From Campylobacterales bacterium (GTDB lineage Bacteria; Campylobacterota; Campylobacteria; Campylobacterales; JAOZPA01): 40,890 nucleotides of DNA. The notes under the pieces were generated by a model. It ran no database searches and had not been told where the DNA came from. It saw only the letters and a program-made list of their open reading frames with translations. The stretch spans positions 1-40,890 of the forward strand of contig JAOZPA010000004.1 of assembly GCA_029932985.1 (NCBI GenBank), in the 5' to 3' direction. Below, piece by piece: positions 35,427 through 39,944 of the stretch. Numbering within the stretch: the first letter of the stretch is position 1; the number at the start of each line of letters is the position of its first letter. A program made the translations under genes and the position numbers.

Positions 35427-36590
35427 ATGAAAAAAGTTATAAGATTTTCGCTAATAGCGATTTTGGCTACAAATGTTTATGCAAACTGGGATGATTTTTT
35501 AAAAGGTTCGGGGACTGAAGATGCAGTTCTGCACGATGATGGAAAAATTTATGATTCAGGGGTACTTTATAATGCAAAAGTGAGTTACCAATTTACAGTT
35601 TTTGATAATAACCAGCATCACGACGACAATGATAGAGTTTGGATTAAAATTGAGGGAGATGGAGTGACTATTGAAACTCCTAGAGATGGTTTAACCAAAG
35701 ATGAGTTAACCGACTGGGGAAAAGCAAATGCCGATGCCCTTATGAAAGCTATTTATGGTGGTGACCCAACTGCCACAATGTCTGGTCAATCCACCTCATC
35801 CTCATCTGCCGCAACAAAAAGCCGAAACTTAGGTATGATAAGCTCACTTAGCAACAATTTTTCATCCAAAGTTTTGATGAATAGTGAATCTGCAACTATC
35901 AAAAACAAAGGTGAAAGTGGTGATGCAAGTTCTGGAGTTTTAAACTACTCCTATGATTTTACAAATGGCGACAAATTAGGTTTTTTGACCACTTACCGAT
36001 ATACAAAAATCAATGACCACTGGGGTTCAAAATCTGGAAATCTCTCACTCATCCCATTTTACACCATAAATAGTATCATAAATAGTCAGCTCGACATTGC
36101 AACCACAATCAACTTAATCGGAAGTGCGGTATATTTGGAATCCTCAATTTTCCCAGATGGTGGCGGATATTTAGAATACGGTGCAGGGGCTGGAGTTATG
36201 CCTACATACAAAATCACCGAAAATTTTTGGCTAAATACAAGCTTGGCATATCAATACAGCAAAAAATATATCCCAAGCTCAAAAGTCCCTGAAGATTTAG
36301 AATTCGTCGCAGATGCCATCAATAATCTTGAACCTATGCAAACAATAAATTATGGAATCGGGGCAAAATATCACTTTACAAAACAATGGAGAGCTAGTGC
36401 CGATGTCCTACAAATTATGCAATTAGCAAGAGAGGATTTAGAGGAGGGGCGAGACAAAGCCACCTATTATATGGCACAAACTCAATATGATTTATACAGC
36501 TGGACTTTGGGTTTAGGATATAAAATCGTAAGAGATGTCGCAGATTACGAAGAGGACTCATATATGTTCACTTGTAAATATAATTGGTAG
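35427..36590 (+). CDS. outer-membrane beta-barrel protein with small N-terminal domain (autotransporter-like)
   Basis: Signal peptide (VYA), acidic ~100-aa domain, Ser-rich linker, amphipathic aromatic strands, C-terminal YMFTCKYNW beta-signal. Confidence 0.7.
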   Translation: MKKVIRFSLIAILATNVYANWDDFLKGSGTEDAVLHDDGKIYDSGVLYNAKVSYQFTVFDNNQHHDDNDRVWIKIEGDGVTIETPRDGLTKDELTDWGKANADALMKAIYGGDPTATMSGQSTSSSSAATKSRNLGMISSLSNNFSSKVLMNSESATIKNKGESGDASSGVLNYSYDFTNGDKLGFLTTYRYTKINDHWGSKSGNLSLIPFYTINSIINSQLDIATTINLIGSAVYLESSIFPDGGGYLEYGAGAGVMPTYKITENFWLNTSLAYQYSKKYIPSSKVPEDLEFVADAINNLEPMQTINYGIGAKYHFTKQWRASADVLQIMQLAREDLEEGRDKATYYMAQTQYDLYSWTLGLGYKIVRDVADYEEDSYMFTCKYNW

Positions 36591-36633
36591 CCTAAAGGTT
36601 TATGACCCTGCAAGAATACCCTATCAATTACAA

Positions 36634-36660
36634 AAAACCTCGAATCTCTTCGGGGTTTTG
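36634..36660 (+). terminator. intrinsic terminator
   Basis: AAAACCTCGAA-tctc-TTCGGGGTTTT stem-loop. Confidence 0.65.
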
Positions 36661-37442
36661 TATCTTTTTGCGTATCTTGTTAAAAAAAATTTAAAAAAAA
36701 ATAGAATAAAAATCTCAAAAATTAAAGCTATCTATAGTAAATAAAAAAAATATTTTTAAAGAAATAATAGACTTAAATATTGAAAATAATAAATTTTTCC
36801 AATAATAGAAAGTGTATTTCCGTAACATAAAACAAGTGTAATTTATAAAAAATACAATAGATTTTTTTTTCTCCAGATTAAGTGTTAATTTTGTATCATA
36901 TTGAATAGTTTAAAGAGATAAAATATATTAAAGGATATTAGAATATATGAAAAAAATGAAAATTTAAATAGTGTATTTAAAAGTCATTATTTTAGAAAAA
37001 ATACCTACCTATTGGGATTACTTTACTATATGAATATTTTATAAATTGCTGTTACTTTCCCTAGAATAAGGACTTTTATAGTAAAATAGAAGTATATTTG
37101 CAGATACAATATATATAATAAAAAGATAATTTTAAGTTAAGATATAGTTAATTTCTAAACTATTAAAACAAAATAATATCTTATATTAATTATAAGGTTA
37201 AATTTCATAAGACCTTTCTACTCCTTAAAAAAATATTTAATTTGTTACAAATTGTATCTACCCAAATTAAAATAAAAGCTATATTTAGTTAATTAGGATA
37301 AATTACATTTTTTAATATATCTTTTTGTATTTTTTAAGAAAAAGAGATAAATTTTAGATAAAATATGTGAATTTTTGCAACAAAAAATATTTATCTTTGT
37401 TAGTGTTAATATTTTTTATTAAGATAATTTTAATCTTAATAG

Positions 37443-37451
37443 TGATAGAAT
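37443..37451 (+). promoter_or_regulatory. probable extended -10 promoter of the repeat-protein operon
   Basis: TGATAGAAT 32 bp upstream of ATG 37484; GGAG RBS at 37475. Confidence 0.45.
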
Positions 37452-37483
37452 TCTTGAAATCTTTTATTAGAGACGGAGTTTTT

Positions 37484-37933
37484 ATGAAAAGAATAATTAT
37501 GCTTTGTTTGCTGTTTGGATTTGAATTAGCTATTGCTAGTTCAGTTAATAGTTTTAATAACTTTCAAGCAAATATGATAGATAATATTAAAGCTAAAAAT
37601 TCTGATATAAAGCAAGGTTCGATAGAGATTAAACATTCTACATTAGGAGATGTTGACAATAAGCAATTAAATGTAATTCGTGATGTTATTGTCAGTAATT
37701 CAGTTATTTCGCAGGGGGCTTTTGAGATTAAAGATTCTGACCTAAAAAATATTGAAAATAAGATGAAGAATGTGATTGAAAATAGTAAATTTTATAATTC
37801 GACTGTTTTCCAAGGGAAAGTTAAAGTTAGTAAGTCAAAACTGAGTAATTTTAAGAATAAGCAAAAATCTATTATTAGAAATGCAAATATTAGAAACTCA
37901 ACAATATCACAAGGTGTGATAACAATTAAATAA
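37484..37933 (+). CDS. secreted beta-repeat protein, 4 x 33 aa (candidate amyloid nucleator / minor subunit)
   Basis: Signal peptide ending AIA, then four repeats S-x-[VL]-x4-N-x-Q-x-N-x-I-x6-N-S-x-[IV]-x-Q-G-x3-[IV]. Start moved from 37367. Confidence 0.8.
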   Translation: MKRIIMLCLLFGFELAIASSVNSFNNFQANMIDNIKAKNSDIKQGSIEIKHSTLGDVDNKQLNVIRDVIVSNSVISQGAFEIKDSDLKNIENKMKNVIENSKFYNSTVFQGKVKVSKSKLSNFKNKQKSIIRNANIRNSTISQGVITIK

Positions 37934-37943
37934 GGTGTTTATT

Positions 37944-38324
37944 ATGAAGAAAATTATTATTTTATCAATGGTCGCAAGTTTAAGTCTTTTTGCTAGTTCA
38001 GTTAATAACTTTGCAAATGCACAAGAGAATAGAATAAATGGTTCCGATGTAGCAAATCATTCTACTTTAGCACAGGGAGCTACATCTGTTAGTGGTAATG
38101 CTGTGGTAAATAACTTTGCAAATGCGCAAGTAAATAAAGTTATTGGTTCTGAAGTTTTAAAGAAATCTAGCTTAACACAGGGTTCTACTTCTGTTGCTAA
38201 CTCTAGACTTACAAATTCTACAAACTTACAAAGTAATAAAGTAAAATATAGTAGTGTCCGAAATCATTCTGATGTATCACAAGGTTCTACAAATATCACA
38301 GATTGTGAGCAAGGCTGTGACTAG
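37944..38324 (+). CDS. secreted N/Q/S-rich beta-repeat protein, 3 x 34-35 aa plus CxxxC tail (candidate major amyloid subunit)
   Basis: Signal peptide ending LFA, three repeats with N-x-Q-x-N and S-x-[LV]-x-Q-G, ends CEQGCD. Confidence 0.82.
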   Translation: MKKIIILSMVASLSLFASSVNNFANAQENRINGSDVANHSTLAQGATSVSGNAVVNNFANAQVNKVIGSEVLKKSSLTQGSTSVANSRLTNSTNLQSNKVKYSSVRNHSDVSQGSTNITDCEQGCD

Positions 38325-38384
38325 TTGAAACAAACTACAACAATTTTGACTTTACGAAATAGTTGTAATTAGTTCAGCTTATAT

Positions 38385-38421
38385 ATAGGATTGAAATTTT
38401 TTGAGTTTCAGTCCTATTTTT
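38385..38421 (+). terminator. intra-operon stem-loop with U-tract
   Basis: ATAGGATTGAAA-n9-TTTCAGTCCTAT followed by TTTT. Confidence 0.6.
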
Positions 38422-38434
38422 CAAAGGTTTAAAA

Positions 38435-38851
38435 ATGAAATCTATTTTAATACTATCTATAATATTTTCCTCTTTACTTATCTCATCTAATGAAAGCTAT
38501 GAAGCATCAAAAGTGAAACACTACTCAAAAAAAAATAATGGTTTAAGTAATGATGGTAAAACTATATATAGATATGTAGAGGGCAAACATACAGTAAAAA
38601 CAAATAACATATCTTTAGGAAGTGTTAAGCAAACAAATTTAAAAAAAGGTCTAACTGTAAATAGTACAATAGATGGGTTAGATGTATTTGGTAAACAAAA
38701 AATAAGTAAATATAAAACAAAAATACTTGAAAAAAGGGAAGAAAACTCCACTGTTAGTAGAATTGGTGAGGTCGATTTAACAAAAGATAAAAACAAAGAT
38801 GTAAAAGAGGTCAATATCTATTTAAAAAATGTACAAATAAGAGTTAAATAA
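38435..38851 (+). CDS. small basic secreted hypothetical protein (candidate assembly accessory)
   Basis: Hydrophobic leader, AAAGG RBS, Lys-rich and beta-prone; sits between the repeat genes and the CsgG-like gene. Confidence 0.7.
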   Translation: MKSILILSIIFSSLLISSNESYEASKVKHYSKKNNGLSNDGKTIYRYVEGKHTVKTNNISLGSVKQTNLKKGLTVNSTIDGLDVFGKQKISKYKTKILEKREENSTVSRIGEVDLTKDKNKDVKEVNIYLKNVQIRVK

Positions 38852-38915: not shown

Positions 38916-39944
38916 ATGAAAAATATTATTTTAATATTAATTGCATTGCTTTTAATTTCAGGATGTGGTTTCAAACAACCTAAAATAACTCAAAAAGAGA
39001 AAGAGTTTAAAAGTCCAATACAAAATAAAACATTTTTTACAGATGCTTTTGCTAAATTAGATAAATTAATGAAACTTTTTGAAGCTCCACGAATTAGAAT
39101 CCAAATAAAATCTATTGAAAATAGGACATCCTCCACAAAACTACCTTTCGATATAAGAAATTTTCTAGAAACACCTCTGATTTTATATATTTCAAGCTTT
39201 GATTTAGTGGCTTACGAACCTACTTTTAGAGAAAAAGAGATGGTTATGACAGGACAACGTTCCCAAGGAATTGAAAAATTTTTGCCAGGCTTGGTTATAA
39301 ATGGGGCAATTACCCAATATGATAAAGGGATTTACTCAACAAGAAAAGGTTTAAATACAGATGTAGAGGCGGGAAAAGGTCAAGGTTCTACTACTTTTAT
39401 GGGTGAACTTGATAATAGTGTAGCCCGTTCTCAAATCGCCATTGATTTAAAAGTCTATAAATATTATGATAGAACTTATCTTTTTGGAATTGCTACTCAA
39501 AATAAAATTGAACTACTAAAATATTCAAGAGATGGAAATTTTGGACTATTTCTAAATGGTACAGGTTTAGGCTTAAGTAAAGCTATCACTTTTGAACACA
39601 CAGAAGACCAAGCCCTTAGAATTTTATCAGAATACAGTGTACTTCAACTTCTAGGTAGGCTTTACGCTCTCCCCTACTGGAAATGTACAAAACCAAATCT
39701 ACAAATAGACAACTTCGTAGTCGAAGGAGAGTTAAAAGAATATACTAATTTTAGCATAAAAAAGAAGATAAACAAATTGGAAATTATCCTTAGTGCTTAT
39801 AAAATGACCTCTTTTAAAAAAGATGGAAATATAGATAATCAAGAACTTAAAGAGATAAAAGAAAAATTTAATGTAGAAGATAATGAAATCTTAAGCCCTG
39901 AATTCTATAAAACTCTCTTCATCAATGCACCTTTTTTTAACTAG
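38916..39944 (+). CDS. CsgG/HfaB-like outer-membrane lipoprotein
   Basis: Lipobox LISGC; VINGAITQYD and SQIAIDLKVY align by eye with CsgG-family strands; two Gly-rich amphipathic hairpins; closing helix QALRILSEYSVLQLLGRL. Confidence 0.72.
   Translation: MKNIILILIALLLISGCGFKQPKITQKEKEFKSPIQNKTFFTDAFAKLDKLMKLFEAPRIRIQIKSIENRTSSTKLPFDIRNFLETPLILYISSFDLVAYEPTFREKEMVMTGQRSQGIEKFLPGLVINGAITQYDKGIYSTRKGLNTDVEAGKGQGSTTFMGELDNSVARSQIAIDLKVYKYYDRTYLFGIATQNKIELLKYSRDGNFGLFLNGTGLGLSKAITFEHTEDQALRILSEYSVLQLLGRLYALPYWKCTKPNLQIDNFVVEGELKEYTNFSIKKKINKLEIILSAYKMTSFKKDGNIDNQELKEIKEKFNVEDNEILSPEFYKTLFINAPFFN

Follow-up and report, generated by a model that had tools for sequence, protein, structure and literature searches.

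The gene at 37484-37933 of the window, by which is meant the whole 40,890-nt stretch of Campylobacterales DNA analysed here, is the first of four genes that likely form an undescribed curli-analogous fibre system. Its product, P0001, is probably a subunit of a surface fibre and could, on a more tentative reading, be the minor seeding subunit (nucleator) at the cell end. The initial annotation had taken P0001 for an analogue of CsgB or FapB that templates the second protein, with emphasis on its basic last repeat. As judged from sequence comparisons, a nucleator role appears to be better supported by the repeat family than by that repeat. The operon is the main result; the specific nucleator claim is of moderate added value.

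The P0001 gene and its operon

P0001 is followed by genes for a second repeat protein (P0002), an accessory protein (P0003) and a lipoprotein (P0004). The features are as follows.

37484..37933, + strand: P0001, the gene of the finding; 149 aa, leader and four-rung predicted beta-solenoid
37484..37537, + strand: signal-peptide-like leader of 18 aa; putative cleavage after ..AIA, from the sequence and the matching start of P0002
37538..37636, + strand: repeat 1; 4 K/R, 3 D/E
37637..37735, + strand: repeat 2; 3 K/R, 5 D/E
37736..37834, + strand: repeat 3; 7 K/R, 3 D/E
37835..37930, + strand: repeat 4, 32 aa; 7 K/R, 0 D/E; the chain terminates in the last strand
37944..38324, + strand: P0002, second repeat protein, 126 aa; three repeats of 34-35 aa, C-terminal Cys pair
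38323..38418, + strand: two predicted RNA hairpins, limits approximate; z -5.3, the second with a U-run after it
38435..38851, + strand: P0003, accessory secreted protein, 138 aa; conserved unnamed family directly before the channel gene
38916..39944, + strand: P0004, lipoprotein, 342 aa; predicted CsgG fold

The open reading frame of P0001 runs from an ATG at 37484 to a stop at 37933 and is preceded by GGAG at 37475-37478. An alternative GTG start at 37367, which would give a longer form, is less probable, since the alignment with the best relative begins at residue 1 of the ATG-initiated protein. The leader was called by reading the sequence by eye and not by a predictor; residues 7-14, which lie in it, have low pLDDT in the AlphaFold model. 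The 131 mature residues are divided into repeats of 33+33+33+32, in the same register as the four 33-aa repeats of the initial annotation. The columns it had named as invariant were recovered as well (S1, N8, I14, N21, S22, Q26 and G27); against these seven, 20,000 shuffles with periods 20-33 tested reached at most two. The self-match count is maximal at period 33, with 37 matches compared to 19 for the next best period, and a recount of repeat 4 again gave 7 K/R and no D/E. The periodicity of P0001 is far beyond chance, the basic end modestly so. Mature P0001 lacks Cys, and each of its four Gly residues stands within Q-G.

P0001 and P0002 are paralogues (33% identity over 120 aa), and the gap between their genes measures 10 nt and has no hairpin, which implies co-expression and compatible rungs. 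The Ile content is 13% in P0001 vs 3% in P0002. The latter protein, which ends in CxxxC, is a candidate major subunit. At the DNA level the mature starts of the two genes (window 37533-37582 vs 37990-38039) are 72% identical over 50 nt, above the rest of the genes; candidate readings are recent duplication, conversion or a shared constraint on the first strand. The hairpins behind P0002 (z -2.7 for the first 90 nt of the region) were not detected in a strict terminator scan; they are likely a boundary between subunit genes and export genes. Since the hairpins follow both repeat genes, which would then be on a single abundant transcript, P0001 could alternatively be a bulk co-subunit, with its paralogue P0002 copolymerising into a fibre of basic surface and P0003 acting as anchor and seed. 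This reading is taken up below together with the repeat classes.

P0003 belongs to a family whose members are basic in an N-terminal segment and carry two strand repeats at the C-terminus, and is a candidate CsgF-like adaptor. Pfam and NCBIfam scans of P0001-P0006 gave nothing over the cut-off, and a promoter scan remained at chance level (28 vs 24.6). Look-alike clusters for P0001 (best 0.84) and for P0003 (Tse2-family ADP-ribosyltransferase clusters; 0.85, low recognition) were under the threshold and were disregarded. Upstream of P0001 lie an AT-rich non-coding stretch of about 890 bp (36591-37483) and, before that, a gene for a secreted 387-aa protein with weak matches to outer-membrane beta-barrels (35427-36590; E 0.007-0.01), with a terminator-like site 3' of it, between that gene and the operon. 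On the other side, a lipoprotein gene runs off the contig (40216-40890); its weak match to the FilF pilus protein (E 0.027) is far under the cut-off.

Predicted folds and comparison with known systems

AlphaFold, given an 89-row alignment of family segments, predicts P0001 as an all-beta solenoid of four rungs, one per repeat, each made up of a long strand segment and four short ones; pLDDT is 88.9 and pTM 0.81, and the five models are in agreement. In Foldseek none of the matches listed was above TMq 0.22; the absence of a close match does not show a new fold for P0001. FapC, the reference for a Greek-key solenoid cross-section, was present in the Foldseek list as a weak match (E 0.05, TMq 0.11) and absent from the top 50 of VIA-align. 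There the CsgA fibril took first place, with Z scores of 9.3 and 8.1 at an rmsd near 9, the match with Z 8.1 and rmsd 9.2 being tied with acetyltransferase beta-helices and near SufB/D-type solenoids. Because the best matches are loose and tied with unrelated beta-helices, structure leaves the family unplaced: as modelled, P0001 appears clear in fold class but not in family. PDB sequence searches with alignments A1, A2 and A3 gave 0, 0 and 1 weak match, respectively.

For the P0004 model (pLDDT 78), CsgG accounted for the top Foldseek matches to rank 22 (E 1.4e-8, TM 0.43/0.56), and P0004 is by its modelled fold a candidate outer-membrane export channel. Pfam CsgG gave no match for P0004 itself and sub-threshold matches in 6 of 12 channel relatives scanned (E 3e-4 to 0.011). 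Its 59 relatives are 39-100% identical, the named ones coming from Sulfurovum and other Campylobacterales, and convincing channel matches were found in 4 of 401 genomes of the class, host genome included. Fourteen weak channel matches (E 9e-5 to 9e-4), confined to a single family of genomes, were not counted; of these, one was inspected and overlies an unrelated reductase-like ORF. The genome under study has three extra CsgG-like genes. One of them (C9:7913-9506) follows an accessory-like gene but lacks a repeat gene; as to the other two (C101:43062-44897 and C161:1252-2271), one is fused to peptidoglycan-binding and DUF4384 domains and one is over the Pfam cut-off.

The operon resembles curli of E. 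coli (CsgB, CsgA, CsgF, CsgG) in its two paralogous secreted repeat-only proteins with N/Q/S ladders and a predicted beta-solenoid, the basic last repeat in the product of the first gene, the small accessory protein and the CsgG-fold lipoprotein. It differs from curli in the following respects: (i) its rungs have 33-35 aa, five strand segments and S-x-I-x-Q-G, whereas those of curlin have about 22 aa and Q-x-G; (ii) the last repeat is regular in P0001 but degenerate in CsgB, whose R5 is described in the accessible parts of two papers as basic and degenerate or less conserved (PMC4551309, PMC10192328); (iii) P0004 is about 15% identical to CsgG and has an extra helical C-terminal part; (iv) the accessory family has no sequence relation to any Pfam family. 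With P0001 as minor subunit, the gene order would match that of csgBAC, in which the minor gene precedes the major one (PMC4551309). The curlin repeat PF07012 did not match P0001 at E up to 1 and had 0 matches in the genome, with a positive E. coli control. Likewise, the curlin patterns X6QX10Q, NX5QXG and QxG, as listed in the accessible part of PMC10192328, had 0 matches in P0001-P0003. CsgF (PF10614) had 0 matches in the 97.7% complete genome, and CsgE had no Pfam match among the six local proteins scanned.

With Fap of Pseudomonas (FapB, FapC, FapF) the operon shares long rungs in which each repeat forms a layer with several short strands, a low number of repeats per chain, and a putative minor gene before the major gene (fapB-fapC). 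The major subunit FapC has a C-terminal Cys pair, CxxC, comparable to the CxxxC of P0002. Unlike Fap proteins, the repeat proteins have no long linkers, and the exporter is of the CsgG fold and not a FapF beta-barrel. Neither a FapF barrel nor a FapD peptidase is encoded in the four-gene operon; the gene at 35427, whose product has the weak beta-barrel matches, is separated from it by 890 bp and the terminator-like site. FapB/FapC motifs, as far as given in the accessible part of PMC12392863, were not visible in P0001 by eye. Lacking curlin and Fap motifs, the operon is therefore an analogue of curli and not curli. For Fap itself, the accessible part of 10.64898/2026.10.01.755530 indicates that the nucleator role of FapB is largely inferred and that cross-seeding is reciprocal.

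A third comparison is with the holdfast anchor of Caulobacter (HfaA, HfaD, HfaB), in which, according to the accessible part of PMC6707917, a CsgG-like channel is likewise combined with non-curlin amyloid-like secreted proteins. The window operon differs in having no polysaccharide secretion genes, and Pfam/NCBIfam scans, whose libraries may not include Hfa models, gave no named match to Hfa families. That this anchor complex, too, is served by the CsgG fold (PMC6707917, same part) and that the P0001 model gives generic structure matches would both suit an operon whose products form no long fibres but a short channel-bound rod or anchor, like HfaA/HfaD on HfaB, or are free secreted beta-helices. 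Such a product is unlikely, given that mature P0001, also in its model, consists of repeats only, without a capping helix or cargo domain, and that the number of repeats in relatives ranges between 3 and well over 10 and that of repeat genes per locus between 1 and 5, a variation also seen in curlins (PMC3521004, accessible part). A surface fibre remains the preferred reading.

Related loci and repeat classes

A word-index homologue search with P0001 gave 36 candidates, none of them significant. HMMER against 1.84 billion representatives gave 19 matches with 26-36% identity, none below 1e-10; 18 are members of the same repeat family by inspection, one match is labelled Sulfurovaceae, and P0082, a liverwort repeat protein, was dismissed as a chance match. 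P0001 hence appears to be without a close orthologue (best 26-36% identity). In the host genome the family profiles found only P0001 and P0002, plus one weak match (E 0.025).

While a locus search with P0004 alone yielded 240 candidates and none was confirmed, 53 loci (9 + 44) were obtained with the channel alignment. They encode 72 repeat proteins, near-duplicates included. Wherever upstream DNA was covered, the order repeat genes, accessory gene, channel gene recurs in these loci, Sulfurovum-type loci among them. The full order is Z (optional, short), A, B (optional), C, accessory, channel. Class A is a variable gene of 214-587 aa, often with a terminal Cys pair, and class B a gene of 440 aa. 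Class C adjoins the accessory gene at 29 junctions, and most loci without C end short upstream. Class Z is present in four loci and missing from several; all four Z-A junctions are free of hairpins. Finally, short, Cys-free, three-repeat R genes occur in four loci downstream of the channel gene and beside a separate C gene, on the minus strand and convergent on the channel gene (L027:4069-4446, L033:1555-1818, L038:3983-4342, L044:964-1323). R proteins have the highest mean BLAST score to P0001 (41.7 vs 36.4 for C) and count among its best matches. A Cys pair near the C-terminus, mostly one rung apart, was seen in all 32 class C proteins (L024-L075); it would lock the last two rungs and is a candidate pre-folded seeding end. 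The accessory profile matched 4 of 401 genomes of the order, host genome included, and the distribution of the operon is patchy.

Several further arrangements were observed in or beside such loci. Many related operons have a divergent OmpR-type regulator upstream (L026:1100-1789, L047:426-1109, L061:3806-4486 and others), in place of which the window has the non-coding stretch before P0001. Repeats of the N-x-G-N-A-G type occur with an accessory-like and a CsgG-like gene in L079:7080-9551, L093:3365-5477 and L081:8216-9857. In L028:3649-6244 and L051:8363-12194, extra repeat genes stand beside secreted glucuronyl-epimerase beta-sandwich proteins, possibly cargo or tip adhesins. Distant operons (L091:6256-8930, L092:6768-9460, L098) comprise an accessory gene, an unnamed 95-aa secreted protein, one repeat protein and a channel (none seen in L098). 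Their repeat protein is basic throughout and has a different motif; it is the only long repeat protein there and, should these operons make a fibre, has to be its bulk component.

Repeat cores were assigned to classes with a classifier trained on balanced draws and checked by leaving out clusters; four R proteins and four partial ORFs were left out. Class C was recognised in 24 of 31 cases, and none of 34 others was miscalled C. Of 200 draws, 167 assigned P0001 to class C and 118 assigned P0002 to class A; when charged residues were disregarded, these counts were 170 and 169, respectively. No other C-type gene is present in the window operon. By analogy, class C, which is constant, pore-adjacent and specialised at its end, would be the natural counterpart of CsgB, and a minor pore-side role of P0001 may be considered to have independent comparative support from the repeat classes. 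P0001 lacks the Cys pair of class C; its gene comes first in the operon, in the position of class Z, and is not separated from the A-type gene by a hairpin.

A tree was computed from the first 95 residues of 47 de-duplicated family rows out of 72. P0001 is found there on a long branch, outside the starred clade of 17 C rows. AU tests rejected neither C+P0001 (p 0.69) nor P0001+P0002 (p 0.63), and the tree therefore cannot place P0001. That sisterhood of P0001 and P0002 was not rejected, and that their mature starts are so similar in DNA, is in line with P0001 being a bulk co-subunit. The regular repeat 4, which suits further stacking, points the same way, as does the accessory family, whose conservation far exceeds that of the repeat proteins (41% vs 17% mean column identity) and which is the common partner in operons with one long, wholly basic repeat protein. 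However, P0001 and P0002 fall in different family classes and differ in make-up, notably in Ile, and different roles are therefore indicated. We thus regard a bulk role of P0001 as somewhat unlikely.

With P0001 as nucleator, the following mechanism is proposed. P0001 would be exported via Sec, as suggested by its leader, and would pass through the P0004 channel, as suggested by fold and gene order. P0003 would capture it at the channel mouth in the way CsgF captures CsgB. The four Ile-rich, regular rungs are predicted to fold into an open-ended template, on which P0002 would stack end to end via shared Asn, Ser and Gln ladders. In the resulting surface fibre P0001 would most likely be the minor seeding subunit at the cell end.

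The basic last repeat and implications of the operon

The net charges of repeats 1 to 4 of P0001 are +1, -2, +4 and +7, and the mature protein is basic overall (pI 9.95). Repeat 3 also has 7 K/R (with 3 D/E), so that the K/R count is not unique to repeat 4. In shuffled sequences the p value for a last repeat with at least 7 K/R and no D/E was 0.012, for a last repeat of net +7 it was 0.045, and for any of the four repeats reaching +7 it was 0.195. Given the composition of P0001, its basic last repeat is only mildly unusual. Among 224 signal-peptide-like proteins of the host genome (31% GC), 18 end at net +7 or more and two end with 7 K/R and no D/E.

Within the family, 7 of 72 proteins have a basic end, and none attains +7. 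All seven are of class C (7 of 32 vs 0 of 40 others) and come from about two lineages, whereas the end is not basic in the other 25 class C proteins. In P0001 it is repeat 4 that comes closest to the consensus (mean BLOSUM 69 vs 58-60). All three acids of repeat 3 sit under a basic residue of repeat 4 (p 0.077; p 0.43 for the whole protein), and the view that the basic residues of repeat 4 are mere partners of these acids was not accepted. P0003 has a net charge of +13, whereas 41 of 41 relatives are acidic. The charges of repeat 4 and of the presumed adaptor are therefore not complementary; the shift towards basic residues extends beyond repeat 4 and may be operon-wide.

The basic end is not a conserved family signature, and a nucleator assignment should not be based on it. 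The proposed analogy to CsgB/FapB is retained with respect to the secreted predicted beta-solenoid, the homology to the 37944 protein and the position upstream of a CsgG-fold lipoprotein, to which the class C score has been added; the argument from the basic last repeat is weak, for repeat 4 is the most regular one, the few basic-ended relatives stay below +7, and in the distant operons it is the sole long repeat protein that is basic over its whole length. Anchoring of P0001 via repeat 4, as in CsgB, is improbable, although the basic surface of repeats 3-4 may help P0001 to adhere to the anionic cell surface.

The climbing charge along the chain could also fit a tip or cap subunit, or one that decorates the fibre; its C-terminal half, rich in Lys/Arg, would bind anionic surfaces (candidate ligands being minerals, DNA and polysaccharide) or end growth by charge repulsion. 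In size, position or score, P0001 is comparable to proteins of the optional R and Z classes, which are short and free of Cys, and related loci have optional extra repeat genes beside the sugar-epimerase beta-sandwich proteins. Yet none of 15 R and Z proteins ends basic, and a purely optional role is less economical because the genome has only two repeat genes. Such a role thus seems quite unlikely, and the minor seeding subunit remains the favoured one.

No description of this system was found in the literature on CsgG-like and amyloid systems and on Campylobacterota, most subscription papers lying outside the search. Epsilonproteobacteria, Campylobacter and Sulfurovum are absent from the main text of a curli survey as far as accessible, whose supplementary tables could list CsgG relatives (PMC3521004). 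On a broader view, Campylobacterota would possess a third, independently evolved cross-beta fibre system, in which the CsgG channel is reused with new solenoid subunits of 33-35 residues and a new adaptor family. The window would hold a minimal four-gene version with a nucleator convergent on CsgB, its end being basic here and disulfide-locked in Sulfurovum-type operons. In its entirety this view is still doubtful. To our knowledge, few secreted beta-solenoid fibre systems of Gram-negative bacteria have been characterised (curli, Fap). Being compact, with four genes, the operon allows the difference between nucleator and major subunit to be tested outside curli, in a system of separate evolution. 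If the broader view is true, a CsgG-fold channel working with unrelated subunits would be a general fibre exporter, and the system would be a candidate for mat building by sulfur-oxidising Campylobacterota such as Sulfurovum.
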